This document shows, one piece after another, positions 42,533-62,582 of a stretch of DNA of 64,000 nucleotides. The translations under genes were made by a program, and so were the position numbers. Each line of letters starts with the position of its first letter. Within the stretch, counting starts at the first letter, position 1. A model generated the notes under the pieces. That model did not search any database, was not told where the DNA came from, and saw nothing but the letters and a program-made list of their open reading frames with translations. The stretch comes from Myxococcota bacterium (GTDB lineage: Bacteria > Myxococcota_A > Polyangia > Nannocystales > Nannocystaceae): NCBI GenBank assembly GCA_039028615.1, contig JBCCHT010000017.1, forward strand, positions 1 to 64,000, given 5' to 3'.

Positions 42533-44920
42533 CTACTTGCTCTCGGGGTTGCTCAGCTCGGCCGCGACCCGCTCGTGGAAGCCGGCGGGGATCGACTCGT
42601 GCCGACGCGGATCGTCGATGGGTCGCACGAGGTCTTCGGCCGCGATGATCCACGGCGGCTCCGGTACGCGATCGAGTTCGTAGAAGCCGCCGCAGAAGCA
42701 CGCGTGCGGACACGAAGCGCACTGCTCCTTGCGGGTGCGCCGAGCCGCCAGGTACTCGCCCAGATTCACCGTCTCGTTGTTCACGAACACCATGTGCCGC
42801 GAGAGCTTGGCGAGGTCCCCCTGCAGCAGCTCGGTGTGGTCGGGCATGAAGCAGAAGGGCAGGTTGATGACCTGGAACTTCATGCGATCGCGGAACTCGT
42901 CGATCACCTCGGTGGCGATGCGAGCCGCGTCGGCGGTATCGGGTGCGACCCCACGCGTCGCACGTCCGAAGGGAGTGAGGAACTGGATGTTGAGCCACGG
43001 CAAGCCGAGCTTCAGGCTCAGCTGCGCCAGCTCCCGCAGCTTGCGGTAGTTCCCCTTGGTGAGCGTGACGTTCATGCCGAGCTCTACGCCGGGCGGCGCA
43101 TGCTTGACACAATTTTCGATGCCCCCGCAGGTCTGCTCGAAGGCCTCGGCCACGCCGACCTGCTGCGCGTGCGTGCGCTGGTCGGGGCCGTGCACGGAGA
43201 ACAGCAGCGTGGTCAGACCGCTGCGGACCAGCTCCTTGGCGTACCCGTCGTAGAAGCAGCGGCGGCCGTTGGTGGTGACGTTGATGCGCTCGTAACCCAG
43301 CGACCGGGCGGCGCGGATGAGCGGCACCAGCTCGGGGTTGAGCGTCGGCTCGCCGCCGTCGAAGTCGACCATGCGGACGCCCTTTTGGCGCCACTTGACC
43401 AGGTGCTCGCGCTGCCGCGTGGGGTGCCCCTGGATCTGCGTCCGAGTGCCCACCGCACAGAACGTGCAGTGGTTGTTGCAGACGTAGGTGACGTTCATGA
43501 TGAGCTTCTGCGGCGCGAGCGTGGCCTGCACGCGCTGCTGGAAGGTCCACATGAAGCGCTCGAGCAGCTCCGAGCTGAGCTCGCTGCCCGTCTGAGAGGG
43601 CGCCATCTGAAAGCGCGGCCCCCAGTCCTCGACGATCGGCAACGAGCGCCCCTCGGCCAGCGGCGTCCCCGGCAGCGGCGTGGCGAACTGGACGGCGGGA
43701 TAGGCCCCGTACTCGTCGAGGAGCTCGAGCGCGAACGCCAGCGTCTCGTTGACCTCGGCCGCCGTCTCCGAGGGCAAGCCGATCATGTAGTGGATCATCA
43801 GCGGCACGCCGACCTCGTGGGCGTTGCGAGCCGCGTTGCGGATGGTGTCGAGGTCGAGCCGCTTGCCCACCACCGAGTCGATCACCCGCAGCGAGCCGCT
43901 CTCGGCCGAGACGCTGACGGTGGTCACCCGGCCGCGCATGCGCGCGAGGTGGTCGCGCTCGAGGTAGTCGGCCCGCATTCCGTTGGGCACGTCGAAGGCC
44001 AGGTCGTGGGTTTCGACCGCGGCCAGGAAGGTCTCGAAGTGGCTCTTGCGAACGTTGATGAGCTCGTCGAGCACCGCCAGGCGCGTCGCCTTGCACTCTT
44101 TGGCCAGGAACTCGACGTAGCGCCCGAGGTACTCCTTCGAGTAGCGGCGCTGGGTCTTGGGCGCGCCCTCGAGGCGATCGGGGTTGGAGCTGCAGTGCAG
44201 GCAGGTGAAGGGGCACCCGCGCGAGGTCACCAGCGGCAGGGTCCGCCCGTCGATGGGGAAGGCCCACGCACCCCGGCCCAGCTTGGCGACGAAGCGCCCG
44301 TGAAACTGCTGGTAGTGCTGCAGGTCCACCGCGTCCCAGGCAGGAAAGGGCAGCGCGTCGAGATCGGCCGGGCGCTCGCCCGAGATCACGCGCCCTTCGA
44401 CATCACCGCGAACGAGACCGAGCACGGAGACCTCGGCCTCGTACTTCACCCAGTGGTCGGCTTCGGGGTAGCTGGCCAGCACCTGAGCCCCGTCGCACTC
44501 CACGTAGTGCTGCCCGGACTGATAGCAGTCGGCCAGGATGATGGTGGCCTCGGGGTGGCGCGCCCGCAGCTGCTCCAGCACGGCCGCGAGCACGTCGTCA
44601 CGATGCGGCGGGCGGTGGAAGGGCGCGTAGGCGACGACGATATGCGACCACTGGGGCGCGGCCTCGCCCTCGTCGGCACGCAGGCAGGCCTCGACCACGC
44701 TTTCCACCGGGGCACCGAGGTGCGCCCGGTCGTCGTCTCGCCACGACAGGTCGGAGTCGGGCAAGCAGAAGGCGTCGACGATCCGCACCGAGCCCTCGTC
44801 TTGCAGCGCTTGCCGCAGCGAGGCCCCGACCTGAAGCGCCCCCAGGTTGGTCAGGTAGGGATAGTCGATGAAGTCCCTCGCTACCGTGAGCGGAGGGTGA
44901 ACGACGAGCACCTGGTTCAT
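42533..44920 (-). CDS. B12-binding radical SAM protein with a second, HxsC-like radical SAM domain
   Basis: N-terminal cobalamin-binding-like domain; TSRGCPFTCLHC; YMIGLP.ET; second VCNNHCTFC with DGGEPT, NLPFC and CASCPHACFCGG. Confidence 0.88.
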   Translation of the reverse strand: MNQVLVVHPPLTVARDFIDYPYLTNLGALQVGASLRQALQDEGSVRIVDAFCLPDSDLSWRDDDRAHLGAPVESVVEACLRADEGEAAPQWSHIVVAYAPFHRPPHRDDVLAAVLEQLRARHPEATIILADCYQSGQHYVECDGAQVLASYPEADHWVKYEAEVSVLGLVRGDVEGRVISGERPADLDALPFPAWDAVDLQHYQQFHGRFVAKLGRGAWAFPIDGRTLPLVTSRGCPFTCLHCSSNPDRLEGAPKTQRRYSKEYLGRYVEFLAKECKATRLAVLDELINVRKSHFETFLAAVETHDLAFDVPNGMRADYLERDHLARMRGRVTTVSVSAESGSLRVIDSVVGKRLDLDTIRNAARNAHEVGVPLMIHYMIGLPSETAAEVNETLAFALELLDEYGAYPAVQFATPLPGTPLAEGRSLPIVEDWGPRFQMAPSQTGSELSSELLERFMWTFQQRVQATLAPQKLIMNVTYVCNNHCTFCAVGTRTQIQGHPTRQREHLVKWRQKGVRMVDFDGGEPTLNPELVPLIRAARSLGYERINVTTNGRRCFYDGYAKELVRSGLTTLLFSVHGPDQRTHAQQVGVAEAFEQTCGGIENCVKHAPPGVELGMNVTLTKGNYRKLRELAQLSLKLGLPWLNIQFLTPFGRATRGVAPDTADAARIATEVIDEFRDRMKFQVINLPFCFMPDHTELLQGDLAKLSRHMVFVNNETVNLGEYLAARRTRKEQCASCPHACFCGGFYELDRVPEPPWIIAAEDLVRPIDDPRRHESIPAGFHERVAAELSNPESK

Positions 44921-44929
44921 CGGGTGCCC

Positions 44930-46783
44930 CTACTCGGCCGCGCCGGCGACGTTCACCGGCTGCATGCACCCGTAGCTGTGCGCCCGGACGTAGTTGACGT
45001 GCACACCCTGGCAAGAGGCGTCGTACATGCACGTCTTACAGCGCAGTGACTTCGTGAAGTAGTGGTCCTGGATGTACTTCTTGGCGTAGCGGAAGATCTC
45101 GAGGTGCCCCTTGGCGTCGAGCATCGAGCCGTCGAAGGTCTTCGGCATGGCCCGCGGCTCGCGACCGGCGATGCAGGCGGGGATGCCTTCGAAGGGGATC
45201 TCGGCCTCCAGCTCGGCGAAGAACGCGTTGAGATCGACGTCCGCTTTAGACGAAGCGGTGAGCTTGGCGTGGGTGGGCTGGCGAAGGATCAAGCCCTCGG
45301 GCACCTTGGCCAGAGACTTCACCCAGTCGGCGTTGGAGCGGTCGAGCATGAGCAAGACCTCGAAGTCGCCGCGCAGATCGAGGAAGCGCTGGGCTTGCTC
45401 GTGATCGCGAACGATCACCTGGGCCAGCTTCAGCTCGGAGATCGCCCTGCCGGACTCGAGCGCCTCGAAGAGCCCGCTGTTGTCGGCCAGCTCGAGAGCG
45501 AGCTCGGTCGGACCGGGGTAGTGGGCAGCTTCTTGCAGCGCCGCGTCGAGGGTGGGCGCAACGACCCACAGTCGTCGGGCGCCCGCCTCGGCCCCGAGCT
45601 CGGGCGGCGCGAGATACTTGGGCGGCGTGCCCGTGCCGTACATCGGCAGGCTCAGGCGCAGGCGCTCGGCCGTCTTGCCCTCCGAGGCACCGGCCGCTTC
45701 CGCGGTGGTCTGATCGGAGTCGAGCATGAGCGCTTCGCGGGTCTCGCTGCGCTGACGACTGGCCGGGTCGCCGCCGTACACGGGCGGGAGCTTGGCTTCC
45801 CAGTCGGTGTCGACGCGGTAGACCTCGAAGTCTCGCTCGGCCAGCCGCTCGCGTCGCTCGTCGAGGCGATCGCAGAGCGGCTCGAGGTAGCAGTGGCTGC
45901 ACCGATGCGGCGCGCGGCAGTCCAGCGGCACGCCCTTCTCGAGCAGGTAGCCGTACTCTTCTTTGCGCCCGCGGACCTCGTCGTTGAGCTTGTACGGGTC
46001 CTGGATCAGGTGCTCGTAGCCCTCGAGGTGCTGAGGCGGGAAGCGGTTGAGCCAGATGTGGACATCCGGGCGCTCGGAGTAGGCGAAGGCCTCGAGCAAG
46101 TACGGACGCATCTGCTCGAGGTCGTAAAAGAGCGTCTCCTTGCCTTCCGTGTAGGCCCGGCCGAAGGGAATCACGTGCAGGAGGTCGTACTCGAGCACCC
46201 CCATGTCCGTGAACTTCTTCAGCATCGTGGGCAGCTGCTTGACGTTGCCCCGATTGACGCAGATGTCGATGTTGATGATGGGGCGGCCATCGGCCAGCGC
46301 GAGCTGGAGACCCTTGATCTCCTGCTCGAAGGCCCCCTTGGTGCCCACCAAGGCGTCGTGGATCTTGGCGTTGGGCCCGTGGATCGAGAACGTGATCTCA
46401 CCGAGGCCCGCGTCGAGAGCCGCGCGGAGGAACTCGGGGTAAGCAAACAGCCGCCCGTTGGTCACCGTCTGGATCCGCTCGTAGCCCGCGAGCGAGCCGA
46501 GGCGAACGAACTCCACGAAGTTGGGGTGGATGGTGGGCTCACCCCCGGAGAGGATCAGCCGCTCGGCGCCCTTGCGACGGCCGTCGAGGATCTGCGCCTT
46601 GATCTCTTGGTTGTTCCGGTTGGTGCCGTTGTGCGTGTGCGAGTCGAGGCAAAAGATGCAGTGATCGTTGCAATCGAAGGTCAGCCGCACCCAGTTGCGT
46701 TTTTGGTGAGCCGCCGCCTCGTGGGCCACGATCTTTTCGGTCCGCTCCTGAGCGGTCTCGGCACCAGCGTTTAGCCCGTCCAC
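44930..46783 (-). CDS. HxsC-like radical SAM protein with extended C-terminal module
   Basis: CNDHCIFC, LSGGEPTIHP, TNGR; CSHC...C; C-terminal GIPAC and CKTCMYDASCQG. Confidence 0.85.
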   Translation of the reverse strand: MDGLNAGAETAQERTEKIVAHEAAAHQKRNWVRLTFDCNDHCIFCLDSHTHNGTNRNNQEIKAQILDGRRKGAERLILSGGEPTIHPNFVEFVRLGSLAGYERIQTVTNGRLFAYPEFLRAALDAGLGEITFSIHGPNAKIHDALVGTKGAFEQEIKGLQLALADGRPIINIDICVNRGNVKQLPTMLKKFTDMGVLEYDLLHVIPFGRAYTEGKETLFYDLEQMRPYLLEAFAYSERPDVHIWLNRFPPQHLEGYEHLIQDPYKLNDEVRGRKEEYGYLLEKGVPLDCRAPHRCSHCYLEPLCDRLDERRERLAERDFEVYRVDTDWEAKLPPVYGGDPASRQRSETREALMLDSDQTTAEAAGASEGKTAERLRLSLPMYGTGTPPKYLAPPELGAEAGARRLWVVAPTLDAALQEAAHYPGPTELALELADNSGLFEALESGRAISELKLAQVIVRDHEQAQRFLDLRGDFEVLLMLDRSNADWVKSLAKVPEGLILRQPTHAKLTASSKADVDLNAFFAELEAEIPFEGIPACIAGREPRAMPKTFDGSMLDAKGHLEIFRYAKKYIQDHYFTKSLRCKTCMYDASCQGVHVNYVRAHSYGCMQPVNVAGAAE

Positions 46784-46872
46784 AGGGCACCACTATAGCC
46801 GATATGGTCGACGCGAAGTTGGCCGAGCTTGGGCACACACCCGCGATTGCAGGCACGAGTCACCCGCCGTGC

Positions 46873-48066: not shown

Positions 48067-48141
48067 GGGAGCTGAAGGACGTGAAGCCGCCAGAGGCGGC
48101 TTCACGAGGTCGCGGCCGAGGCCGCCGGCCCTAGGTGGGCG

Positions 48142-49935
48142 CTAGATCCACTCCGCGATGATCGTGTACGGAGCGCACACGTCGGGCAGACCCGGGACGG
48201 GAAGGACCTCGACCCAGAAGCTGGGCGGCAGCGGGTGCGGTGCCGTGTAGTTGGCGTCGCCGCAGTTGCCGAAGTTGCCGTCGCCTTGGCCGTCGGTGTC
48301 GTCGCACGAATCGGACCACTCCCAGAGGGTGTTGAACCCAGGCCCGGGCAGGGTGGTGTCGTTCGTGTTGTCGGTCTGCGCCGCGCCGACCGGGCCGTCG
48401 TTGAACGGCACGGTGTAGTTCAGCGGATCTTCGCAGCCGCTCGGGATGATGTCCTCGAAGACGCGGAAGCGGACGTTGGTGTTGCCGATGTCGGCCGGGT
48501 TGCCCGGGTTCGCCGGATCGTCGATGTAGATCCGCAGCGTACCGCCGAGCTTGGAGCCGCTGCGGTCGACCGCATCGCTGGCGTCGAAGACCACCTCGAC
48601 GTAGTCGCGGGCGCCCGAGACACCGACCAAGCCGGTGGTGCTGTCCGAGCTGCCGAAGGCGATGGAACCGACGGCCGGGATCCGCTCCGCGCTGGCGCAG
48701 TCGTTGTTGCCCGGGTCGTCGTCGCAGTCGGGCTGACACGTGGAGGAGCAGCCGTCGTTGTCGTCGAGGTCTCCGTCGTCGCAGCCCTCGCCCGCGCTCA
48801 CGTTCTGGATGCCGTCACCACACTCGACGAGGGTGCAGTTGGAGTTACACGTGGGCGACTCGCCCGCGTCGTCACACTCCTCGCCGGCCGACACGTTGAC
48901 GATGCCGTCGCCGCAGGAGGTGAGCGTACAGTCGGCGTTGCAGGTGGCCGAGACGCCACCGTCGTCGCACTGCTCGCCCGCCAGCGTGTTGAGGACACCG
49001 TCGCCACAGACCGGGTCGGAGCAGTCGGCGTCACACGTCGCCGTCTGCATCGCGAAGTCGTCGCAGTCCTCGCCCGCGAGGCCGTTGGTGATGCCGTCGC
49101 CACACTCGGGAACGGTGCAGTCGGGATCGCAAGTCGCCGACTCGCCCGCGTCGTCGCAGTCCTCGCCCGCGGTGGCGTTGTGGACTCCGTCGCCACACTC
49201 GGCCGGAGTGCAGTCGATGTCGCAAGTCGAGGACTCGCCGTCATCGTCACAAATCTCGCCGACGGCACTGTTGACGTAGCCGTCGCCGCATTGGACGAAG
49301 GTACAGTCCGCATCACAGACGTCGGTGCGCATGCCGTCGTCGCACTGCTCGCCCGAGGTGATGTTGAGGACACTGTCGCCGCAGACGACGAAGGTACAGT
49401 CGATGTCGCAGTTGGCCGACTCGCCGCCTTCGTCACACTCCTCGGCCGCCGTCGGGTTGGTCAGGCCGTCGCCACACGCCGCGAGCGTACAGTCGTAGTC
49501 ACACGTCGCCGACTCGCCACCGTCGTCGCACTCCTCGCCTGCCGCCGTGTTCGTGACGCCGTCACCACAAAGCACGCTCGTACAGTCGGCGTTGCAGTTC
49601 GCCGTCTCGCCACCGTCGTCGCAGTCCTCACCCGGGTCGACGTTGCCGTCACCACAAAGAGGACCGCCTTCGCTCGAGCTGTCGGACGTGTCGTCGGCAC
49701 CGGTGTCGTCGGGATCGACGGAGGTCGTGCTGTCGCCGCTGGTTCCACCCATCGACATCGCACTCGTCTGCTCTTCCGTCGTGGCGACTTCACCACCCGT
49801 CGTGGTCTCTTCCATCGTGCCGGCAGTGGTTCCTCCTCCACCGCCGGCCGAGGTGTCGACTCCGTCGTCGCCGCACGCGAATATTCCTAGAGAGCCATAA
49901 ACTAAAAACGGCAAGACCCGATTGCGACGCGGCAT
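48142..49935 (-). CDS. Myxococcal Cys-rich repeat lipoprotein
   Basis: GIFAC lipobox; T/G linker; ten CGDG..N..AGE.CDD.GES..C..DCT units. Confidence 0.85.
   Translation of the reverse strand: MPRRNRVLPFLVYGSLGIFACGDDGVDTSAGGGGGTTAGTMEETTTGGEVATTEEQTSAMSMGGTSGDSTTSVDPDDTGADDTSDSSSEGGPLCGDGNVDPGEDCDDGGETANCNADCTSVLCGDGVTNTAAGEECDDGGESATCDYDCTLAACGDGLTNPTAAEECDEGGESANCDIDCTFVVCGDSVLNITSGEQCDDGMRTDVCDADCTFVQCGDGYVNSAVGEICDDDGESSTCDIDCTPAECGDGVHNATAGEDCDDAGESATCDPDCTVPECGDGITNGLAGEDCDDFAMQTATCDADCSDPVCGDGVLNTLAGEQCDDGGVSATCNADCTLTSCGDGIVNVSAGEECDDAGESPTCNSNCTLVECGDGIQNVSAGEGCDDGDLDDNDGCSSTCQPDCDDDPGNNDCASAERIPAVGSIAFGSSDSTTGLVGVSGARDYVEVVFDASDAVDRSGSKLGGTLRIYIDDPANPGNPADIGNTNVRFRVFEDIIPSGCEDPLNYTVPFNDGPVGAAQTDNTNDTTLPGPGFNTLWEWSDSCDDTDGQGDGNFGNCGDANYTAPHPLPPSFWVEVLPVPGLPDVCAPYTIIAEWI
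48727..49656 (-). repeat. Tandem coding repeat of about 93 nt (31 aa), 10 units
   Basis: Units counted from the translation. Confidence 0.8.
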
Positions 49936-50323: not shown

Positions 50324-51169
50324 TTGGCATCCCCGGGCTCGAAGCACGCGCGCTGGCCTGATGGCCTTCTATTCGCCAAGCGCCACGAGCGCTGGCGCGA
50401 GCAGACCTCCGAGGATCCGCGTCTGGCCGCGCTTCGTGCGCGAGACGGCTCCGACGATGACATCGTTTCGACGGTGGCGGCCGCTCGTTCGGCGGGGTTC
50501 GAGCAGATCGTGCTGCAGCACGACGATCCGTCGGACGAGGCTCCACGCGATTGGGCGGCGCTCCGCGACGCTGGCCTCACCGCGGTGAGCGTGCGAGTCG
50601 AGGGCGGCACCGCGGACCTGCACGACTTCATCGCGGCTCAAACTCCCGACCGCCCCGCGCCCGACTTGGTCACCCTCGAGGCGACGTGTCGGCAGATTCG
50701 ACAGCACGGCCTGGCGATCCACTTCCGCACTCGGGTCGCTCGATCGAACTTTCGATCCCTCGAAGGTGTGCTTCGCCGGGCGATGGCCTGGGACGCGAAG
50801 ACGTGGACGTTGGAGTATCTGCCACTGCGCAGCACCGAGCTCCCGCCCGAGGGCGTAGGCCACGCGCACCCTCGATTGGCCTTGAGCCTGCCCTGGGTTT
50901 TGCGTTCGGGTGCGCGAGCTGCGGCCCGGCGCGTCGTGTTTGCACTGCGCGGCGCTCCGCTGTGTTTGCTGGGTCCCTTGGCTCCCCACGCCGTGCTCGA
51001 ACAACCCGCCGGCTTCGGCCCGACCTGCGAATCCTGCCCGGCTCGCAACGGCTGTGTCGGTGCCGATCCGACGTACCTCGAGCGCTTCGGACTCGACGAA
51101 CTGCGACCGCGAGCAACCCCCACCACGCCGAGCGTCGGCTGGTGGTCGGTCGCTCCGATCCTTTATTAA
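50324..51169 (+). CDS. Degenerate HxsC-like radical SAM-fold protein lacking CxxxCxxC
   Basis: VSVRVEGG.ADLHD, RSN, APLC, CESCPARNGCVG retained; no CxxxCxxC; start uncertain. Confidence 0.6.
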   Translation: MASPGSKHARWPDGLLFAKRHERWREQTSEDPRLAALRARDGSDDDIVSTVAAARSAGFEQIVLQHDDPSDEAPRDWAALRDAGLTAVSVRVEGGTADLHDFIAAQTPDRPAPDLVTLEATCRQIRQHGLAIHFRTRVARSNFRSLEGVLRRAMAWDAKTWTLEYLPLRSTELPPEGVGHAHPRLALSLPWVLRSGARAAARRVVFALRGAPLCLLGPLAPHAVLEQPAGFGPTCESCPARNGCVGADPTYLERFGLDELRPRATPTTPSVGWWSVAPILY

Positions 51170-53442: not shown

Positions 53443-53988
53443 ATGGCCAATACGCTGCAAGAAAAACTGGGTCGACGTACGTTCCTCGCTTCTGGGGTGG
53501 CCGCCGTCGGAGCAGTGGCGGCGACGTCGACCGTAGCGAACGCGGCGACGCCCGAGGCCAAGGCCCTCGCTCGCACCAATGCCCGGCGCGGCGATGCTCG
53601 CTACGGCTTCGAAGATCCCGATCACGACGAGCTGCAGCTGCTCGGTCTCACCGCCGGCATGATGGTCGGGCCCTACACCATCGAGCGCGTGGCCATGCGC
53701 GAGGGTGCCGCCCGCATCGAGGCGAAGGGCCAGGGCACTCAGTTCCGCGTCGACGTCCTTCGTCGCAGCCGGTCGCCCAAGGCGCTGGCCGACGTCGGCG
53801 AGTTCAGCCTGTACCTGTGCAACCACGGCAGCGGGAACTACCGCACCGAGGAGGCGGCAGGCGTCGGCGTGCTCACCCTCGCCAAGTACCTCGAGACGGC
53901 CAAGCCCGAGGTGCCCGAAGCACTGATGACGTACGCCGATCGTCGCCTCATGCACCCGATCCGCCACACCGGCCTCGGCCGTCCGTAG
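53443..53988 (+). CDS. Tat-exported hypothetical protein
   Basis: LGRRTFLASG twin-arginine signal with ANA cleavage site. Confidence 0.75.
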   Translation: MANTLQEKLGRRTFLASGVAAVGAVAATSTVANAATPEAKALARTNARRGDARYGFEDPDHDELQLLGLTAGMMVGPYTIERVAMREGAARIEAKGQGTQFRVDVLRRSRSPKALADVGEFSLYLCNHGSGNYRTEEAAGVGVLTLAKYLETAKPEVPEALMTYADRRLMHPIRHTGLGRP

Positions 53989-54035: not shown

Positions 54036-55952
54036 GTGAATGGGCCAGACCTCTCACCGGGTCTGACCACGCGTAGGCCCGTCGCACCCGATCCCTCGGC
54101 ACGCCCGACCAAGGCGCTGATCAAGGTCGGCTACGGCTGCAACGATCACTGTAGCTTCTGCCACACCCTCGACGTCCGCCACATCCAGGGCGAGGCGATC
54201 GAGGTGCATCGCAAGATCCGTCGGGCCAAGGCGCTCGGCCACTCGATGATCGTGCTGTCCGGGGGCGAGCCCACCATTCGCCCCGAGCTTCTGGCCTGGG
54301 CCAAGCACACCGCCGCGCTCGGGCTCGACTTCGGGTTGGTCACCAACGGCCGGATGCTGAGCTACCCCAAGCTCGTCGCCAAGCTGCTCAAGTATCGGCT
54401 GCGCTACGTCTATCTGTCGCTGCACGGGGGCACGGCCAAGATCCACAACTTGATGGTCCGCAGCCACGCCTTCGAGGAGACCTTCGGCGCCGTCGCTCAG
54501 CTGTCGGGCAAGGGCCTCGATTTTTCCGTCAACTGCGTGATCACCAAGCACAACGTCGAGCACCTCAAAGGGGTCGTCGACGCGCTGCTGCCCTACCCCG
54601 ACGTCCCGCTCAAGTTCTCGATGGTCGAGCCCAAGGGCGGCGGCAAGAGCCTCTTCGATCACATCATCCCGCGGGTCGAACACGTGGCCCAGCGCGTGCG
54701 CGAGGCCATCGCCTACGGCGAGTCGCTCACCGATGGCGATGGCACCGACGGCGTCCCGCCGCGGGGTCGCTGGCTCACGCACGGGGGCATTCCACTGTGC
54801 CTGATGCGAGGCTTCGAAGATCGCTACGACGATCTTCGCACCCACGGCTTCGACACGATGACGGAGATCGGCGAGCCCGACTTCTTCCCCGTCGACGACG
54901 ACAACAAGGTCCAGACCGACAAGTGTGCTCGCTGCTCGCTGTCGGGGGCGTGTCCGGGGCTCTACGTCGGCTACAACGCGCGCTTCGGCGACGACGAGCT
55001 GCGCCCGGTCATGGACCAGCCGCGCTCCAACTCGTTCAACTACACGCTCGAGGCCTCCGTCCCCGCGGCGGGGCCTCGGTGCAAGGTACTCGACTCCGGG
55101 CTCGCCCCCTGGGAGTACGGCCGGCACCTGTTCGTCAGGCGCGGCGACATCATCGAGCGCTATCGCAGCCGCACCCGTGACTTCTCCGATCGCGAAATCT
55201 CGGAGGTCAAGCACGAGCGCGGGCAGATCTACCTCGACGTCAGCACCAAGGCCGCGCCCGACGACTTCGCCAAAGACCTCGTCCAGCTGCAGCGCGCCTC
55301 GGTGTGCACCGACTGCCCCGAGTACCGCGACTGCACCGGCCTGTTCGAGCCCGTACGAGAGTCGGTATTCGAACGCGACGACGCCCGGGTTCGCGAACTC
55401 GTCGGCTCGCTCTCCGGCCGCGTGCTCGACGTGGGCTGCGGCGAAGGCCCGTACAGCGAGCTGCTCGCGCCGCTCACCCGAGCCGGCACCGTCGAGTACG
55501 TGGGCATCGATCCCCACGAGCAGCGGATCGCTCAGCTCGGCGAGCGCTGGCCGTGGGCCACCCTGCTGGCCACCACCGCCGAAGACCTCGCCGCCCGCGT
55601 GGCCACCGACGAACAGCTCGGGCGCTTCGATCACGTGCTCGTGTTGCGAAGCTGGAACCACATGCGCGAGCCCCAGGCGCTGCTGCGAGCGCTCGGCGGC
55701 CTGCTCGTCCCCGGCGGCACGCTCACCCTGGTGGACAACGAGGCCTTCGGGTTGGCCCGCTCGGAAGAGCAGACCGGCCACGCCGAGGCGGGCCCGGCCG
55801 AGTTCGAGCACTACCGCAACGACGGCGCCGAAGAAGCCGAGGCGATCGTCGCTCAGCTCGATCTGCCGCTCGAGCCGCTCGAGTCGCACGCCGTGCGCCC
55901 CGGACGGAGCAACCAGTGGCTGCTGCGCTACCGCTGGGCCCCGGCCGACTGA
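54036..55952 (+). CDS. HxsC-like radical SAM protein fused to class I methyltransferase
   Basis: CNDHCSFC, LSGGEPTIRP, GIPLC, CARCSLSGACPG, second CTDCPEYRDCTG, RVLDVGCGEG, YVGIDP, LVPGG. Confidence 0.85.
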   Translation: MNGPDLSPGLTTRRPVAPDPSARPTKALIKVGYGCNDHCSFCHTLDVRHIQGEAIEVHRKIRRAKALGHSMIVLSGGEPTIRPELLAWAKHTAALGLDFGLVTNGRMLSYPKLVAKLLKYRLRYVYLSLHGGTAKIHNLMVRSHAFEETFGAVAQLSGKGLDFSVNCVITKHNVEHLKGVVDALLPYPDVPLKFSMVEPKGGGKSLFDHIIPRVEHVAQRVREAIAYGESLTDGDGTDGVPPRGRWLTHGGIPLCLMRGFEDRYDDLRTHGFDTMTEIGEPDFFPVDDDNKVQTDKCARCSLSGACPGLYVGYNARFGDDELRPVMDQPRSNSFNYTLEASVPAAGPRCKVLDSGLAPWEYGRHLFVRRGDIIERYRSRTRDFSDREISEVKHERGQIYLDVSTKAAPDDFAKDLVQLQRASVCTDCPEYRDCTGLFEPVRESVFERDDARVRELVGSLSGRVLDVGCGEGPYSELLAPLTRAGTVEYVGIDPHEQRIAQLGERWPWATLLATTAEDLAARVATDEQLGRFDHVLVLRSWNHMREPQALLRALGGLLVPGGTLTLVDNEAFGLARSEEQTGHAEAGPAEFEHYRNDGAEEAEAIVAQLDLPLEPLESHAVRPGRSNQWLLRYRWAPAD

Positions 55953-55961: not shown

Positions 55962-57176
55962 CTAGCCGAGATCGGTCGCGGCCGTGCCCGCGTCGTAGTA
56001 GCGCTCCATGAAGTGCGCATCGAGCCGGGCGAGCTCGTCGACCAGCCCGCGCCCCACCGTCGTGGGTTGGGCCGCCTCGACGACCGTCGTCACCGCCTCG
56101 TGATTCGACGCCACGATCTGGGCCAGCCGCCGCCGAAAGTCGGGACGCGACGACCACGGGTGCTTCGCTTCGATCAGCCGCTCGTAGAGCTTCGCCACGG
56201 GCAAGAAGGCATGCGCCGCCAACAACACCCCGTGCAGCGGACGCGGGTCGGGCCGCACGGGCGAGCTGTGCATCGAGGTGAACGCGTTGAGCAAGACCCG
56301 ATCGATCTCGAACAGCGCGTTGAGCTTGTTGTGGGAAAACTCGTGGATCAGCGCTTCGGCCATCACCATCGCGTTGGGATGGAGGCTGAGATAGACGGTG
56401 CCGATCGCCTCGGCGTACGACGCCGACAAGTGCTGGTGGTCATCGAACCCGACCGGGACCACCCGCTGGATGTACAGCTGCATCTCCGCGAAGAGCGTCG
56501 GCATCCGGGCTTCGATGATCCCCAGCGCCTCGTCGAGGGTCTGGACCCAGTCGTCCGCGGAGCGATCTCCCAGCGACAACGCGTTGCCGAATTTGTCGGG
56601 GTGAGCCTCGAGCTCGGCGATGGGGTTGTTGTCCTCGAGGGCCAGGGTCAGCCCGCCGTGCAGCGCATGGGCCGTGGACTCGAGCTGGGCATCGGTACCG
56701 GCAGAAACTGCGTCCCTCACGCTCGTGCACACCGGGCGACCATCGGCATCCAGCCCCAGCAACTTCGGCCCTTCGAAGCGCAGAACCCGGACCTCCGCCG
56801 GGCAGGACCAGGTCGCGCGGCGGGGCAGCGTCACGATGCGTCGAGCAAAATCCTGCAGCTCGATCGGCCGATCCAGCACACCCAAGGCCCACAGCTCGAA
56901 GACCACGAGGGTCAGGTACTCCGCCGCCACGGCGAAATCTCGACGATGGCCCCGCGAAATGCAGCGGGCCAGGGTCGAAACATGGGTCCAACGAAAGACG
57001 CTGGCCAGCGCACCCGGGTTCGCTCGGGCCAGCTGCCGAAGCAGCCGTGCGAGCTCTGCCCACTGCTTGATGAACCGGGCCGGGGCCCCGGGGGGAGGCG
57101 GCAGCGAAGGAGCGGCCCGCAGCAGCGCCCCGAGACTCGCCGACAGCACACCGCGCGCCGTTCGAGACTCCGCCAT
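55962..57176 (-). CDS. HExxH-motif peptide-modification protein (aKG-HExxH type)
   Basis: SAS...IGTVYL, EALIHEFSHNKL, SPVRPDPRPLHGVLLAAHAF. Confidence 0.85.
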   Translation of the reverse strand: MAESRTARGVLSASLGALLRAAPSLPPPPGAPARFIKQWAELARLLRQLARANPGALASVFRWTHVSTLARCISRGHRRDFAVAAEYLTLVVFELWALGVLDRPIELQDFARRIVTLPRRATWSCPAEVRVLRFEGPKLLGLDADGRPVCTSVRDAVSAGTDAQLESTAHALHGGLTLALEDNNPIAELEAHPDKFGNALSLGDRSADDWVQTLDEALGIIEARMPTLFAEMQLYIQRVVPVGFDDHQHLSASYAEAIGTVYLSLHPNAMVMAEALIHEFSHNKLNALFEIDRVLLNAFTSMHSSPVRPDPRPLHGVLLAAHAFLPVAKLYERLIEAKHPWSSRPDFRRRLAQIVASNHEAVTTVVEAAQPTTVGRGLVDELARLDAHFMERYYDAGTAATDLG

Positions 57177-57359
57177 CGGGACGGTCAGGTCCTGCGGCAC
57201 CGTGACATTGGCTTTGGGCACTTCGGCAAATCCTACCTTCTGTTCGCGGGATGGACCCCTACGCGAGCGATCTCCGCCCGTTGATCCGCCACGGCTGCCG
57301 GCCCCGGTGGTGTACAATGGCGCGGCATCGGCGGGCTGGGACCCGCGTTCGACCACCCC

Positions 57360-57833
57360 ATGAGCGCTCTCCAAGGTTTCCCCAAGTCCTACACTCCGCG
57401 CGATGATGGCGGCGTCGACTTCCTGTGCAATGCACGGGTCTACCCGGCAGAAGCCATCTTTGCCGCCACATATGCGCTGCTCGACCGCGGCTACTTCCGC
57501 ATCGACCGCGACGACGACGGCAATCACATCATCCAGATCCACGCGCGGGAGGGCGAGTCAGTCCGAGATATCGTTGGGAGCCTCACCAATGAGCTGCTCT
57601 CTGCGGTCTGCAGGACCCACCTGCACCAGCGCAAAGAGGTGATCCTGGAGGCGGTGACCCTCGCGTCCATGGCGGGGGCCGTCGGACGCCCCGACCTCGA
57701 CGACCTCGAGGACTTCGACTTCTCCGAGGAGGGCCTCGACGATCCCCTCGGAATCGCCGTTTCCTGGGAAGAAAAGTACAAAAGTCCGAAAACGACCGCA
57801 TCTGAGCCCAAATCGGGCAAGGAGCCCTCATGA
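57360..57833 (+). CDS. hxsD: HxsD-like protein
   Basis: VYPAEAIFAATYALLDRGYF...LTNELL...DDPLGIAVSWEEKY. Confidence 0.8.
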   Translation: MSALQGFPKSYTPRDDGGVDFLCNARVYPAEAIFAATYALLDRGYFRIDRDDDGNHIIQIHAREGESVRDIVGSLTNELLSAVCRTHLHQRKEVILEAVTLASMAGAVGRPDLDDLEDFDFSEEGLDDPLGIAVSWEEKYKSPKTTASEPKSGKEPS

Positions 57834-58048
57834 ACATGCGACTCCACAGCGAGATCTACACCGAGGCGTCCGTATCCGCCGCGGTCGAGGCCTTCACGGA
57901 CTACTCCACCGTGAAAATGTCGCAGGATTCCAACTACTGGGTGGTCACCGTAGAGGACGAAGACCCCGAGCGGGCGCAGCTGATCGCGCACGAATTGGGG
58001 AACATGGCCCTCGGTTTGTCGATCGACGCCGGCGGATCAGCGCGCTAG
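57830..58048 (+). CDS. Short HxsD-like protein
   Basis: LHSEIY...V..AVEAF...ELGNMALG; ATGA overlap with the upstream hxsD. Confidence 0.65.
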   Translation: MNMRLHSEIYTEASVSAAVEAFTDYSTVKMSQDSNYWVVTVEDEDPERAQLIAHELGNMALGLSIDAGGSAR

Positions 58049-58138
58049 CCGCTATCTCGGGGCCGATCGACAAGAACGAGCGAGTTGTCGCTGTCGACCC
58101 CACCTCGAATGGTTTGGATGGTAAGGTAATCAAGTTCC

Positions 58139-58558
58139 ATGGCCGACCCCAAGACGAAGAAAAAGAACGGCCTGCCAACTTTCAAAAAGGGGGTGGGTGG
58201 TCAATTGACGGCGTCGGATCGGTCGCTGACCGACCGGGCGCTCGCGCTCGCGGAATCGGGACAGGGTCCGGTCTTCTTGGCCGACGCGTCTTCGATCGTC
58301 GCGCCGCAGCACGCGAGTCACGGTTCGCACGGTTCGCACGGTAGCCACGGTTCGCACGGTAGCCACGGCTCGCACGGTAGCCACGGTTCGCACGGTAGCC
58401 ACGGTTCGCACGGTAGCCACGGCTCGCACGGTAGCCACGGTTCGCACGGTAGCCACGGCTCGCACGGTAGCCACGGTTCGCACGGTAGCCACGGCTCGCA
58501 CGGTAGCCACGGTTCGCACGGTAGCCACGGTTCGCACGGCAGCCACGGTTCCTGGTAG
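58139..58558 (+). CDS. hxsA: His-Xaa-Ser repeat precursor HxsA (57-aa leader + HAS + 26x HGS + W)
   Basis: Translation; counted in DNA as 26 nine-nt units from 58319 to 58552. Confidence 0.9.
   Translation: MADPKTKKKNGLPTFKKGVGGQLTASDRSLTDRALALAESGQGPVFLADASSIVAPQHASHGSHGSHGSHGSHGSHGSHGSHGSHGSHGSHGSHGSHGSHGSHGSHGSHGSHGSHGSHGSHGSHGSHGSHGSHGSHGSW
58310..58552 (+). repeat. 9-nt/18-nt tandem repeat encoding (HxS)27
   Basis: CACGGTAGC alternates with CACGG(T/C)TCG. Confidence 0.95.
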
Positions 58559-58590
58559 CGACCCCGCTCGAAACGTCTTGGTGAAAACGC

Positions 58591-58622
58591 AGCCTCCGCC
58601 CCGTGGCGGGGGCTTCGTATTG
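58591..58622 (+). terminator. Hairpin terminator after hxsA
   Basis: AGCCTCCGCC-CCGT-GGCGGGGGCT followed by TCGTATT. Confidence 0.6.
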
Positions 58623-58629
58623 GTTCGAA

Positions 58630-59475
58630 CTACTTTCGCAGATAGTGGAAGTAAACGTTGGCCGGCGTCGGGTGAAGTGCCCGTCGCTCGTAGACATACG
58701 AAGCGATCCACGGCCGCAAGATGCCCGCGCCCGCGGCATCGAGGCGCTCGTTCATCGTCGTCATCATCGCGCGCAGCTTCGGATCGAGCGGGAGCCGTCC
58801 CTCGAGGAGCTCCGCCGATGCGGAGTGGAAGTACACCTGGCGCCGCTGGCTATGCACGCACTGCTGGAAGACCAGATAGCGACACCCGAGCACCAGCGTT
58901 CGGAAGGCGGTGAAGTTGCCGATCACCCGCGGCAGCCGTTTCGCGTCGAGCCGCACGTAGACCTTGAAGTCGTGCAGGCCCGAGGCATTGAAGTCGAGCC
59001 CGAGGATGCACATCGAGCTCGTGTCCAACGAGGGCGGCAGCTCGGGCGCCCCCACGGCCGCACGAAAGGCCTCCACCGTCTGGGCCGCAGGCCCGCGGAA
59101 CACCAAGTAATACTTCAGTCGTAGGGACGGCTCGGCCTCGATGCCCAGCACCACCTGGCGCACCGCGGGCGCATGGGCGCCGCCCTCGGAGAGCACGCGC
59201 CAAAACTCCTTCGGGATCGATACGCCCAGCGCTGCGACGATCGATTCGAAGCGCGTATTGGCCAGCGAGATCATCTCGCCCGACGGCGTCGCATCGAAGT
59301 AACAGGTCTCGCGCCAGGGTCGGAGCTCGCCGCCCATCCACGCCGAGTACTCCTCGAAGCTCGGCGGCGGTCCGTCGCCGCGGACCAACGCATCGAAGCG
59401 CGAGAAGCTGGCGGGTGCTTCGCCCCCGACCTCCGTCAAGGCTTCGAGCAGCGGGCTTCGGTGGCTCACCTCCAC
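58630..59475 (-). CDS. Hypothetical protein, possible LynF/TruF/PatF-like (ABBA-fold) prenyltransferase
   Basis: Strand pattern QVVLGIE...RLKYYLVF...ILGLDF...G..DFKVY...RQVYF...ANVYF. Confidence 0.5.
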   Translation of the reverse strand: MEVSHRSPLLEALTEVGGEAPASFSRFDALVRGDGPPPSFEEYSAWMGGELRPWRETCYFDATPSGEMISLANTRFESIVAALGVSIPKEFWRVLSEGGAHAPAVRQVVLGIEAEPSLRLKYYLVFRGPAAQTVEAFRAAVGAPELPPSLDTSSMCILGLDFNASGLHDFKVYVRLDAKRLPRVIGNFTAFRTLVLGCRYLVFQQCVHSQRRQVYFHSASAELLEGRLPLDPKLRAMMTTMNERLDAAGAGILRPWIASYVYERRALHPTPANVYFHYLRK

Positions 59476-59522
59476 CAGCCTACCGCCAACCCGCCTGCGG
59501 TTTCGTGATAACGTGCCGAGCC

Positions 59523-60407
59523 GTGTCCAGCGCAGGTGCCGAAGCTCGCCCGCGTTCGCCCCTGGTCCCGAGTACCGGGCAAGACCGGTTCTTCGACTAT
59601 TGCCTCCAGCCCTATCCGCCGCGCTGCGATCCCGCCGGGAAGCTCCGCGGCGAGAGCCTGCTGTGGAACAGCCTGCAGGTCGCGGGCCTGAGCGAAGCCG
59701 AGTACGCGGCCTTCGACGCCATTCGGGAGGCCGCTGGCCGGGACATGACCGTCTTCGGCGTGAAGTGGTTCGACGGGCGGCTGTCCTGGGAGATGTACTT
59801 CTACGACCCGCAGCGCGACGACGAGCAGATCACCGCCGCCGCGCTCCGTCAGGCTCTGAAGGGCGTGCTCGACCTGCGCCCCTACGTCCCCGACAGCACG
59901 CGCTACTTCATGTACAGCTTCGATCTCGACGCCGCCTCCGTGCGCGCCGCCTCCGTGCCCGAGATCAACGTGTACCTCCAGTTCCACGAGGGCCAGGGCG
60001 GGCACTCCTACGCCCTGCGCGAGGACTCCTGCGAGCTCCGCAACACCTATCGCTTCCACGAGCCCAAGCGGGAGATCGACGCGATCCTCCATCAGGTGCG
60101 GCGCAGCATGTGGGTCGACTTCTCCACCGTGCGCCTCGCCGACATCGTGCTCCCCGAGCTGTACGAGTGCATGAAGATCTGCGTCGCCAAGAAGCGCTAT
60201 GCGGATGCCATCTACTACTCGGGCATCAGCATCGATCAGCTGCGCTGGTTCCTGCATCGCTTCGAGTATCCCGACGCGGTGCGGTCCTTCGTCGACGAGC
60301 ACCACGCCGACTTCGCCCACCTGCTCTTCGACGTCGGCATCGACTATCGCAGCGGGCCCGACGGGCGCCTCGAGTACCCGAAGACGGGCTACTACTCCAC
60401 GCTCTGA
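59523..60407 (+). CDS. Hypothetical aromatic-rich protein (paralogue of 61683..62582)
   Basis: FDYCL.PY, KLRGESLLWNSL, TVFGVK, WEMYFYD, YYSGISIDQL, HLLFDVG; start uncertain. Confidence 0.7.
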   Translation: MSSAGAEARPRSPLVPSTGQDRFFDYCLQPYPPRCDPAGKLRGESLLWNSLQVAGLSEAEYAAFDAIREAAGRDMTVFGVKWFDGRLSWEMYFYDPQRDDEQITAAALRQALKGVLDLRPYVPDSTRYFMYSFDLDAASVRAASVPEINVYLQFHEGQGGHSYALREDSCELRNTYRFHEPKREIDAILHQVRRSMWVDFSTVRLADIVLPELYECMKICVAKKRYADAIYYSGISIDQLRWFLHRFEYPDAVRSFVDEHHADFAHLLFDVGIDYRSGPDGRLEYPKTGYYSTL

Positions 60408-60413
60408 GACCCC

Positions 60414-61643
60414 ATGGCTATCGATCTCCTCGTGATGCTCGACGACGACGGCCCGGCTCCGGGTGCGCTGCGAGGCTCGAGCACGCCCGGTCCCGAGTTC
60501 ACCCCGCGACCCTTCCTCGACTTTTGTAGGGGCGTCGGCGAAACGCTGCCCTACGAGCGACTCGTCTTCGTGGGCGATGGCGAGCCGCTCGAGCGCTATG
60601 GCTTCTCGGCCGTCGAAGCTGCTCACGAGGCCGGGTTCCGCAACATCCGCCTGCATACCCGACCCTGGCGGCTCACCGATCCGCGCCAGGCCTACGCCGT
60701 GGTCAACACCGGGGTCAGCGAGATCTGCGTGGGGCTGCACTCCACCGATCCCGAGCTCCACGATCGCCTCTGCGACCGCCCCGAGGACTTCCGCGCCGCT
60801 CAGCGGTGCCTTCGCAACATCGCCAAGCTCGAGGCCGAGGCCTCCGTGCACGTCGTCATGACCCGCGCCAACCTCGACCAGCTCGCCGATATCGCACGGC
60901 TCGCCATCGAGTCCGAGGCCCAGCGCGTCGAGTTTTGGGCCCATGCGCCCCTCGACCCCGAGCCCGAGCTGCGGGAGCTGCTCGCCCCGCTCGACGAGCT
61001 CGTCCCGCGACTGCTCGAAGCCGTCGATGTCTGCGAAGCCGGTCGAGTCCAGACCGCGATTCACCACGTCCCCGTCTGCCTGCTCGGCCGCGCGGGCGCG
61101 CTCGTGGACAACCACGAGCCCCACGACTTCCTGCCTCGGGCCGACTCGCGAGCGCGGCCGCGCTTCAACTGCCTGCACGAAGCGCAGTGCGACACCTCCG
61201 AGATCTGCCTCGGGTTGAGCCACGCCCACGTCAGTCGTTTCGGCTGGGAGCTGGAGCGCCTTCGGCCCGCCCCGCGCACGCGACCGTGGCGGGCCCGCGA
61301 CCGCAGCGTCGTGCGGATCGGCGAGCACGGCAGCGCCCCGCATGGTCACGCCCAGTGGCTCGCCCTGCTCGGACCCCACGCCGAGGGTGTCGAAGGCATC
61401 GTCCTCACCCGAGACGAAGCCCGCTACCCCATGCAGATGCCCGACGGCACCCGCTTCGACCTGCTCGTCACCGCCCGGGACGAGACCTCGCGGACCTTCG
61501 AGCAAAGCCGCTCCTTCAACCTCTCGTATACCGACGTCGAGGGCTCCGCGGGCGAACGCGCCATCGCGACCTTCCTCGAGCCCATCTTCCGCACCATCAC
61601 CGCCAACGACGACGGCACCCTCTCGCTGGATGCGAGAGTCTAG
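60414..61643 (+). CDS. Degenerate HxsC-like radical SAM-fold protein lacking CxxxCxxC, with extra C-terminal domain
   Basis: GDGEPL, VGLHS..PELHD, RANL, HVPVCL, C....QC...EICLG retained. Confidence 0.7.
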   Translation: MAIDLLVMLDDDGPAPGALRGSSTPGPEFTPRPFLDFCRGVGETLPYERLVFVGDGEPLERYGFSAVEAAHEAGFRNIRLHTRPWRLTDPRQAYAVVNTGVSEICVGLHSTDPELHDRLCDRPEDFRAAQRCLRNIAKLEAEASVHVVMTRANLDQLADIARLAIESEAQRVEFWAHAPLDPEPELRELLAPLDELVPRLLEAVDVCEAGRVQTAIHHVPVCLLGRAGALVDNHEPHDFLPRADSRARPRFNCLHEAQCDTSEICLGLSHAHVSRFGWELERLRPAPRTRPWRARDRSVVRIGEHGSAPHGHAQWLALLGPHAEGVEGIVLTRDEARYPMQMPDGTRFDLLVTARDETSRTFEQSRSFNLSYTDVEGSAGERAIATFLEPIFRTITANDDGTLSLDARV

Positions 61644-61682
61644 ATTGCGAGCCCTCGGCGCCGCGCATACCCTCTGAAGGCG

Positions 61683-62582
61683 TTGTCCTCCTCGGAAAAG
61701 CCCGCGGCCTCTTCATCGCCCGACGTCGAGCTCTACCCGGCGAGCGAGCACGACGTTCATATCGGCGTCAGCTTCGACACCTACCGGTTGTTGCGACCGA
61801 TCCAGGGCAAGATCCGCGCCGAGAACCTGCTGTGGAACTCGCTGTCGCACGCGGGGGTGCGCGAGACCTGGGAGGCGCCGCTGCGGGCAATTCAGTCGCT
61901 CGTGGGGCGTGACCGTACGATCTGGACGGTCGTGCTGGACCACGAATCGGGGGCGCTGTCGTGGGAGATCCGGGTGCTCAACGACGACGACGGTCGTGGC
62001 GCGCTCGGAGTATTTGGCCCGCTGCGCGAAGCCTTGATGCCTGGCGTCGAGCTGCCGGCCGTCGAGAGCCTGCCCGAGTATGCGGTGCTCACTCTGCGTT
62101 TCGATGCCACCTCGGCGCAGTCACCCGCGATGGCCATCGAGCTTCATCAGCCGGGTGCGACGCCGCGGCAGATGCAGCTGTCGCGGATCGATGGCGACGG
62201 GCTCCACCCCATCGGTCACGACGTCGCTCTGCACCCCAAGCGGGACATTCACGACGTGCTCGCGCAGATCAAGGACAGTCGCTTCGTCGACTACTCCAAG
62301 GATCGGCAGCTCCTCGGGCGGGCCTTGGTGCCCGAGCTGTTCGCGTGCCGCAGGGTCTACGTCGGGCGGCGGGATGACTGCGACGTGCTCGGGTTTTCGG
62401 GGATCAACATCGACCAGCTGAAGTTCGTGCATGCACGCTTCGAGTTTCCGGAGGCGATGCGGGCTTATCTCAACGATCACCGCGATCGGCTCGAGCACAT
62501 CATGTTCGATGTGACTACGGAGTACGTGGGTCGCGATGGGAAGATCGCCAATCTTCGGACCGGGTTTCGCTCGTGTTTCTAG
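61683..62582 (+). CDS. Hypothetical protein (diverged paralogue of 59523..60407)
   Basis: KIRAENLLWNSL, GRDRTIW, VPELFAC, FSGINIDQL, HIMFDV. Confidence 0.7.
   Translation: MSSSEKPAASSSPDVELYPASEHDVHIGVSFDTYRLLRPIQGKIRAENLLWNSLSHAGVRETWEAPLRAIQSLVGRDRTIWTVVLDHESGALSWEIRVLNDDDGRGALGVFGPLREALMPGVELPAVESLPEYAVLTLRFDATSAQSPAMAIELHQPGATPRQMQLSRIDGDGLHPIGHDVALHPKRDIHDVLAQIKDSRFVDYSKDRQLLGRALVPELFACRRVYVGRRDDCDVLGFSGINIDQLKFVHARFEFPEAMRAYLNDHRDRLEHIMFDVTTEYVGRDGKIANLRTGFRSCF

Follow-up and report, generated by a model that had tools for sequence, protein, structure and literature searches.

The 64,000-nucleotide window analysed here is the first 64 kb of contig C17 (JBCCHT010000017.1) in a 12.3 Mb, 96.7% complete genome of a Myxococcota bacterium of the family Nannocystaceae, and it carries an hxs locus of about 20 kb (positions 42533-62582) that encodes a precursor of His-x-Ser (HxS) repeats, HxsA4. 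By its HxsA4, HxsB and short HxsD the locus belongs to the type-4 Hxs group, but it fails the canonical four-gene definition. It is expanded by accessory genes that keep company with hxsA4 or hxsB across the phylum, among them a twin-arginine translocation (Tat) signal protein and a newly recognized family predicted to have the ABBA fold. The best overall explanation, which we put forward tentatively, is a modified repeat precursor with a Tat carrier, acting as an HXS-like barrier to phage DNA.

The genes are listed in Table 1, and those without a name are referred to by their first coordinate. An original prediction for this stretch had counted hxsA, hxsB, three hxsD-like genes, six HxsC-like genes, an HExxH gene and a Tat gene in mixed orientation, and each of them lies where it was placed; the second radical S-adenosylmethionine (SAM) domain of 42533, the methyltransferase of 54036 and a Cys-rich repeat gene had gone unmentioned. 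Its view of the locus as an expanded Hxs system is borne out, with HxsA4, HxsB, the short HxsD and the HExxH protein all passing curated cut-offs.

The core of HxsA4 follows a conserved leader, starts at residue 58 and comprises one HAS and 26 HGS triplets closed by Trp, that is, 27 HxS triplets with 27 His in 81 residues and with neither Arg nor Lys. Pfam gave no signal-peptide or peptidoglycan-binding match in this protein, which terminates at the Trp after the repeats and whose leader shows only a weak apolar patch. The Ser codons of the repeat are mixed (TCG 13, AGC 12, AGT 1, TCC 1), indicating that the repeat is maintained at the protein level; with the conserved arrays in relatives, this codon usage rules out an assembly artefact or a DNA microsatellite as its origin. 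In those relatives the core is near-invariant, 940 of 950 later triplets being HGS, and all 74 array ends are Trp (72 directly, two following HGR or HGQ; the rows include duplicates and arrays cut at locus ends). Copy number varies freely, mostly from 9 to 59; one locus (L128) holds two tandem precursors of 59 and 35 triplets, and genomes G133 and G188 have 49. The window's own genome contains two HxS arrays only. A terminator-like hairpin lies past hxsA4 (58598-58613) and is weak, with nine such sites against 6.0 expected in the region, and promoter and terminator scans of the region gave chance-level results.

Among the putative maturation enzymes, HxsB has its closest solved chains in 5wgg (1e-23), 4k37, 8vpo and 9gm3, and a second copy on another contig scores 568 against TIGR03978. 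In a tree of 39 HxsB rows, which has several long branches and was read without a species tree, genera group together, and the window copy falls inside a 20-row clade (99/99) with family members and the genome's other copy. The two long HxsD-like proteins are 29% identical to each other; a further HxsD copy, on contig C5, reaches 49.7 against the TIGR03976 cut-off of 50. The six HxsC-like proteins are the C-terminal half of 42533, 44930, 46873, 50324, 54036 and 60414. As originally predicted, they share P[FLV]C (six of six) and CxxCx5CxG (five of six, 60414 having a Cx5Cx5CxG variant); the prediction did not register that none passes the HxsC or HxsC4 model, or that 50324 and 60414 lack both CxxxCxxC and GGE with their auxiliary cysteines kept, so that by motif they cannot bind the SAM cluster. 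The other four HxsC-like domains have intact SAM-cluster motifs, and six intact CxxxCxxC motifs lie within the span. In relatives the 50324-type gene is kept between the Tat and HExxH genes, with CxxxCxxC in none of 22 aligned homologous stretches.

Homologues of 46873 (58-84% identity) also lie near hxs genes in relatives, and a homologue of 44930 is found at most 10 kb from a homologue of the 795-residue enzyme 42533 in 51 of 80 loci. The closest named records to that two-domain enzyme come from Paraliomyxa miuraensis (85%), then Enhygromyxa, Plesiocystis, Nannocystis and others at about 50-70%, and the closest solved chain to its N-terminal half is 6fd2. The B12-binding domain PF02310 matches weakly in nine of 63 homologues (best 5e-4) and is absent in the window protein, where B12-type families stay below cut-off; to judge from these matches, a cobalamin-binding N-terminus is possible.

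The HExxH protein, an alpha-ketoglutarate (aKG)-dependent type, matches 22nu (2e-12) and ChlH 8s5f (0.003) in the PDB. According to the available part of PMC12636437, an HExxH domain adds hydroxyl groups to Asp and His on a cyclophane that is already formed. Cyclophane RiPPs (peptides made by the ribosome and modified after translation) of the triceptide type with aKG-HExxH proteins, such as those of ChlBH, have in common with our locus a radical SAM/SPASM enzyme, a TIGR04267 protein and an aromatic-x-Ser three-residue motif. They differ in that HxsB here scores 45-50 bits against cyclophane-synthase families of the XyeB/GrrM/FxsB/YhhB type, whose cut-offs are 310-450 (GrrM/OscB 49 versus 310, YhhB 50 versus 445), in that the core here is a 27-fold repeat, and in that the HxS cross-link is putative.

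To follow these genes through the phylum we profiled 201 genomes, the window's own included, with E-value thresholds for each query; kin in this sample are not independent, and it has no unrelated control gene. In it hxsA4 occurs in 70 genomes, hxsB in 74 and both in 67. The two-domain radical SAM enzyme is present in 42 genomes, all hxsB-positive, and in none of the 127 hxsB-negative ones, and the methyltransferase fusion in 19, again all hxsB-positive. HExxH genes occur in 42 (41 with hxsB, the remaining one with hxsA4), Tat genes in 38 (37 with hxsB, the remaining one beside hxsA4) and the U2 family in 15, 14 of them hxsB-positive. The accessory genes are thus confined almost entirely to genomes with hxsA4 or hxsB (42/42, 19/19, 42/42, 38/38 and 14/15). 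Accessory genes occurring elsewhere without hxsAB had been named beforehand as what would speak against the system; what the 201 genomes show is co-occurrence.

For the minimal system, whose product the original prediction had called unknown, the available portions of PMC13128918 now supply a function. Out of 113 phages, 110 are restricted by E. coli HXS, at the stage of DNA entry and with all four genes required, and HxsBCD mature HxsA with a mass change of +8 Da (+C-4H type) on SHRSS, which also replaces the plain -2 Da ladder that had been expected. In the same portions, HxsC binds HxsD, alanine replacements in E. coli point to DNA engagement, and the chemistry and the non-canonical export of HxsA are stated to be open. 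Our locus shares with this system an HxsB above the cut-off, HxsD-type proteins, HxsC-like proteins and a substrate built of HxS repeats. The substrates differ: in E. coli HxsA the HxS repeats number five and are basic, and they come with a signal peptide and a domain that binds peptidoglycan (PMC13128918), whereas here there are 27 uncharged HGS-type repeats with a terminal Trp and neither of the other two elements. Where E. coli has a four-gene set, this locus has six HxsC-like proteins and the HExxH, methyltransferase, ABBA-fold and Tat proteins; the survey in PMC13128918 found more than 99.8% four-gene systems and 99.7% in Pseudomonadota. Set against the type-4 Hxs models of NCBIfam (HxsA4 NF038313, HxsC4 NF038332, HxsD-like NF038315), HxsA4 and the short HxsD pass, no HxsC4 over the cut-off was found in the genome, and, apart from the generic HExxH domain, none of the accessory proteins reaches the cut-off of a dedicated family. 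A literature search found no description of an expanded myxobacterial Hxs form; most subscription journals lay outside that search, and supplements may list such systems. PMC8446631, in the part available, merely lists hxsABCD.

We consider it probable that several enzymes modify the HxsA4 repeats. HxsB together with complexes of HxsC-like and HxsD proteins would put the core HxS modification on many triplets, iteratively, with the +8 Da (+C-4H) change in E. coli as precedent. The HExxH enzyme would add beta-hydroxyls, probably to His and once rings have formed; methyls would come from the methyltransferase and class-B-like domains, with the motif-less HxsC-like copies perhaps acting as partner or substrate-binding subunits. 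Prenylation of His or of the terminal Trp by the ABBA module would be an optional and weaker addition. Having no signal peptide or peptidoglycan-binding domain, the precursor would be carried out to the cell envelope as a passenger of the Tat protein, and the product would act there, by homology only, as an HXS-like barrier to incoming phage DNA. An envelope-barrier role is, narrowly, the most likely; the anti-phage role as such, drawn by analogy with E. coli, we judge a little short of evenly balanced.

Several observations weigh against this reading. No protein tested in the genome passes HxsC TIGR03977 (window best 96 versus 268) or HxsC4 NF038332 (window best 109 versus 500), and a genome-wide scan with NF038332 gave nothing over the cut-off in an assembly that is 96.7% complete; in relatives, by contrast, a true HxsC4 directly follows hxsA4 in 10 of 20 loci read (two were tested, at 614 and 627 bits). 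The E. coli model depends on Arg/Lys residues and on a peptidoglycan-binding domain, and HxsA4 has neither, its core being free of Arg and Lys. Of the 73 genomes of the order, 52 have hxsA4 over the cut-off and 59 have the two-domain enzyme; the retention of hxsA4, the genus-wise clustering of HxsB and the dispersal of the genes look more like a stable trait than a mobile defence. Finally, modification, export and phenotype are all read here from sequence.

Export is the step for which the relatives are most informative. The Tat protein belongs to an unnamed family of 832 representatives, with the RR motif in 98 of the 137 full-length top matches; a PDB sequence search with its core was uninformative. 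A search for a domain shared with the C-terminal part of the radical SAM proteins 60414 and 66775 gave hhalign E-values of 0.016 and 0.005 (probability below 7%) and an hmmsearch iE of about 0.01. HxsA4 leaders fall into two classes, one with FL-x-x-EEG followed by an apolar stretch, which may be pilin-like, and the other polar. As a measure we used the maximum 12-residue Kyte-Doolittle mean of the leader in 69 of the 70 hxsA4 genomes. Its median is 0.82 in the 34 Tat-positive genomes and 1.61 in the 35 Tat-negative ones, and by family 0.66 (10 families) versus 1.61 (18 families). Values of at least 1.5 occur in one of 34 Tat-positive versus 24 of 35 Tat-negative genomes, and of at least 1.7 in none of 34 versus 15 of 35. 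At a relaxed threshold, a Tat gene appears beside an hxsB or HExxH gene in three of five polar-leader 'negatives' versus none of five hydrophobic-leader genomes.

The Tat protein thus accompanies precursors without a hydrophobic leader, a pattern which suggests that HxsA4 may be exported as its hitchhiker; hitchhiker export via Tat is established for other proteins (PMC4273604, in the part available). Against this, the leader contrast vanishes at 2.0 (0/34 versus 1/35), the sole Tat-positive exception at 1.5 or above is the window's own leader (1.52), and about seven of the 69 leaders retained in these counts are N-gapped or partial. The pattern may also reflect few evolutionary events: the HExxH gene has a split resembling that of the Tat gene (33 genomes have both), so that leader and Tat protein may trace one ancient divergence. 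Export of HxsA4 by the Tat carrier could well go either way. Two candidates for a leader peptidase were considered and set aside. For a dedicated prepilin peptidase, the genome's one A24 match lies on another contig and none was found beside the hxs genes in five hydrophobic-leader genomes, a divergent protease being possible; the Rce1-like protease (contig 84108) is without a counterpart in the syntenic cluster of G046, a genome of the same genus.

U1 had originally been given as a possible prenyltransferase, and models and profiles support that description. Its Atlas model has a template-modelling (TM) score of 0.76 to the Trp_DMAT cluster and 0.68 to the PTase_Orf2 cluster, its family profile finds SmiF 9vt8 (E 0.0013) and 8ye0 (E 0.0018), and it has the invariant pairs K119-x-Y121 and K169-x-Y171; no Pfam family is over the cut-off. 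U2 and U3 had been entered as two unknown paralogues, of which the paralogy stands and the 'unknown' can be replaced. In the comparison with the U2 model, all 19 chains with a Z of at least 8 are ABBA prenyltransferases (best Z 13.4, root-mean-square deviation 3.9 over 243 residues; next fold 6.8), and Foldseek places AmbP3, LimF, FAMD1 and KgpF at the top. As modelled, U2 folds as the ten-stranded prenyltransferase (PT) barrel, and U3 would share the ABBA fold by homology, which with U1 makes three such predicted proteins in the locus. A profile search found no family match for U2, a PDB sequence search was uninformative, and comparison of the U1 and U2 profiles showed no similarity. The U2 family has 180 homologues, and none of the 120 listed bears a Pfam or functional name.

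With the known ABBA prenyltransferases (the LimF/KgpF F-family and DMATS enzymes such as AuraA), U2 has the PT-barrel fold in common and U1 the fold plus weak profile similarity; U2 is set apart by an identity of about 7-16% and by its genetic tie to an HxsC-like radical SAM gene. According to the available part of PMC11696170, LimF geranylates His in RiPPs and AuraA uses Lys-x-Tyr pairs. The conserved Tyr92, 151, 176 and 231 of U2 have Glu, Asn, Asn and Ala at -2, and its conserved Lys/Arg residues lie elsewhere (81, 223-225, 287), in a reading of the alignment and not a residue-by-residue superposition; with Asn, Ala and Glu in place of Lys before the strand tyrosines, U2 and U3 may not be prenyltransferases.

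U1, U2, the motif-less 60414, U3 and an active radical SAM gene travel together as a module. The U2 family is found in 11 of the 73 order genomes, versus 59 for the two-domain enzyme, and the module has no HxS array nearby in the DNA read from eight of 13 genomes (G053, G058, G029, G052, G049, G054, G171 and G200). Since relatives so often have it at a distance from hxsA, HxsA may not be its substrate, and these figures, like the tyrosine context, tell against including it in the pathway. They favour two juxtaposed pathways, with U1-U2-60414-U3 and the downstream radical SAM and PhyH genes acting on a substrate other than HxsA4, an alternative that concerns the right-hand third of the locus only. 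Opposed to it are the presence of hxsB in 14 of the 15 genomes of the phylum with U2, the position of the module among hxs-type genes in G046, G031, G221, G165, G243 and G236, and the HxsC-like nature of its radical SAM partner. We take juxtaposition seriously while leaning against it; action of the ABBA proteins on HxsA we entertain with somewhat more doubt than belief. In G031 (locus L195), an hxsD and two short hxsB fragments stand directly before the U2 module, possibly a decayed locus of the window type. In the window's contig, a lower-GC insert at 63395-66606 (OmpA-domain, unknown and peptidoglycan-binding proteins) separates U3 from its radical SAM partner and is not at that place in G046.

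Maturation and export could serve another end, the product being a constitutive polymer of the envelope or surface whose role lies in structure or cell interaction and not in blocking phage. Such a polymer would suit the wide retention in Nannocystaceae, the synteny of the locus, flanked by one and the same EAL-domain gene in several genera, and neighbours that include NeuB, UDP-GlcNAc 2-epimerase, a carbamoyltransferase, a polysaccharide deacetylase, a sulfotransferase, UbiA and an LPG-synthase transmembrane protein. PADLOC, too, gave cross-matches only, in 27 proteins with radical SAM or methyltransferase domains; however, PADLOC 2023 predates HXS. The sugar genes stand beside the locus solely in G046 among the loci read, and the only tested homologous system is anti-phage (PMC13128918, in the portions available). 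We regard a constitutive polymer as unlikely, though it deserves a place in the argument.

A multi-copy cassette from which modified HGS units are excised as a small metabolite or cofactor is improbable. The repeats are identical and free in copy number (mostly 9-59), many oxidative tailoring genes lie downstream (three PhyH, a JmjC cupin, an oxidoreductase, an amidohydrolase domain), and repeat cores are known from the TVG pathway to a poly-cyclopropylglycine RiPP. That pathway, as described in the available part of PMC9062424, likewise has a repeat core that a radical SAM enzyme modifies iteratively, and an Fe/aKG oxidase lies close by; it differs in its TVGG motif, its single radical SAM enzyme and its encoded peptidase and transporters. 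For HxsB/C, PMC9062424 cites Haft and Basu. No conserved protease was seen, the Rce1-like gene (contig 84108) being unmatched in the syntenic G046 cluster, E. coli HxsA remains a protein, and the terminal Trp is invariant.

His-rich peptides bind metals, and the 27 His in 81 residues could make the polymer a metal chelator or store, as the original prediction had suggested, but this is very doubtful, since no metal-transport or metal-regulator family was found among the neighbours scanned and the alanine replacements in E. coli point to DNA engagement (available portions of PMC13128918). The modified precursor acting at the envelope as a barrier remains the reading that we prefer.

Table 1. 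Features of the hxs locus (window coordinates)
Feature	Position	Strand	Basis or score
Two-domain radical SAM protein, 795 aa: class-B-like N-half (CxxxCxxC at 236) and HxsC-like half (CxxxCxxC at 481, PFC, CxxCx5CxG)	42533..44920	-	
HxsC-like radical SAM protein, 617 aa, with middle-region insertion	44930..46783	-	HxsC4 109 bits, below cut-off
HxsC-like radical SAM protein, ~397 aa	46873..48066	-	TIGR03977 96 bits, below cut-off
Cys-rich repeat protein, myxobacterial	48142..49935	-	TIGR02232 33.5 vs cut-off 20.8
Degenerate HxsC-like protein, PLC and CxxCx5CxG, without CxxxCxxC	50324..51169	+	HxsC4 E 5e-6; start uncertain (50324 TTG or 50474)
HxsB radical SAM/SPASM maturase	51179..52660	-	TIGR03978 570 vs 370
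HxsD-like protein 1, long form	52672..53157	-	TIGR03976 31 bits, under cut-off 50
Twin-arginine signal protein, unnamed family	53443..53988	+	N-terminal LGRRTFL, then apolar stretch
HxsC-like radical SAM domain with C-terminal class I SAM methyltransferase	54036..55952	+	Radical_SAM 1e-21, Methyltransf_12 1e-12
aKG-HExxH peptide beta-hydroxylase, HEFSH motif	55962..57221	-	TIGR04267 95 vs 40
HxsD-like protein 2, long form	57360..57833	+	TIGR03976 34 bits, under cut-off 50
HxsD-like protein, short form	57830..58048	+	NF038315 65 vs 41; adjoins hxsA4
HxsA4 precursor, 139 residues: 57-residue leader, HAS(HGS)26, Trp	58139..58558	+	NF038313 129 bits vs cut-off 55
U1, ABBA-fold protein resembling F-family peptide prenyltransferases	58630..59475	-	Atlas model and profile
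U2, ABBA-fold protein	59505..60407	+	AlphaFold2 predicted local distance difference test (pLDDT) 94
Degenerate HxsC-like protein without CxxxCxxC	60414..61643	+	Copy of intact radical SAM gene at contig 66775, 30% identity over 380 aa
U3, U2 paralogue	61683..62582	+	31-32% identity to U2; E 4e-89 to U2 profile

The core genes of the locus keep their order across genera. In relatives, the methyltransferase fusion, hxsD, short hxsD, hxsB, hxsA4 and hxsC4 recur with the Tat, degenerate HxsC and HExxH genes on the opposite strand, whole or in part across the 20 loci read, some of which are hxsA4 almost alone. The end at 62582 that had been predicted is not the end of the cluster, which runs beyond the window to about 111 kb of contig C17. 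The extension (66775-110891) has 11 further radical SAM genes, 10 of them above the Pfam cut-off, with 12 further CxxxCxxC motifs; several of the encoded proteins have two radical SAM domains or are fused to oxidoreductase or B12-binding domains. The remaining extension genes include those for three PhyH domains, the JmjC cupin, the oxidoreductase, the amidohydrolase domain, UbiA, the LPG-synthase transmembrane protein and the Rce1-like protease. Most of these genes are present in the same order in G046, and in other lineages homologues of several are found again near the 795-residue enzyme, each in 2-6 of 80 loci. In G046 (L032:4442-7915), the 66775-type radical SAM protein and the PhyH/amidohydrolase protein are called as a single 1157-aa open reading frame (ORF), where the window's genome has two genes. 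The genome also has a second, dispersed Hxs set, consisting of an 11-triplet hxsA4 with a short hxsD on contig C16 (92248-92890), where the second Tat-family gene also lies, and an hxsD-hxsB pair with an HxsC-like gene on C5 (243238-248121).

Other genes of the window stand apart from this system. The Cys-rich repeat gene 48142 has 38 tblastn matches in its own genome and two counterparts at this position in G046 but none in the other core loci read, and is likely a passenger within the locus. Upstream, at 28903-38117, lie genes for UDP-GlcNAc 2-epimerase, an NTP-transferase, NeuB, carbamoyltransferase, polysaccharide deacetylase, a TPR protein and sulfotransferase, most of which G046 likewise has upstream of the locus. 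Between the sulfotransferase and the locus come a PhoD-like phosphatase and a Cys-rich repeat protein of the MYXO-CTERM type (38234-42117), which are not there in G046. A separate RiPP-like cluster on the minus strand at 14905-22755, with a 54-aa ORF (22591-22755), radical SAM, MNIO (PF05114), YcaO, TfuA, a second YcaO, GNAT and a TylF-type methyltransferase, looks like a thioamide/MNIO pathway.

At its fullest, the proposal is an assembly line in which as many as about 18 radical SAM domains, together with hydroxylases, methylases and a new family of ABBA barrels, would work on poly-(His-Gly-Ser)-Trp, and a lipidated, cross-linked polymer would hitchhike on a Tat carrier that replaced an ancestral hydrophobic, pilin-like leader. 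We think this complete form unlikely to hold in every part; if true, RiPPs would gain an export route not seen before, and the unsolved chemistry of HxS a point of entry. Full-length E. coli HxsA formed inclusion bodies and resisted reconstitution (PMC13128918, in the portions available), and the short leader-plus-repeat precursor may be a cleaner substrate, as modifications would appear as a mass ladder on a 281.11 Da unit (standard residue masses). The system is present in the cultured genera Nannocystis, Enhygromyxa, Plesiocystis, Paraliomyxa and Minicystis, which makes it testable, unlike the expanded clusters of uncultured lineages. The cluster also offers a collection of radical SAM enzymes awaiting assignment, motif-less but conserved copies among them, together with unnamed ABBA-fold and Tat families.

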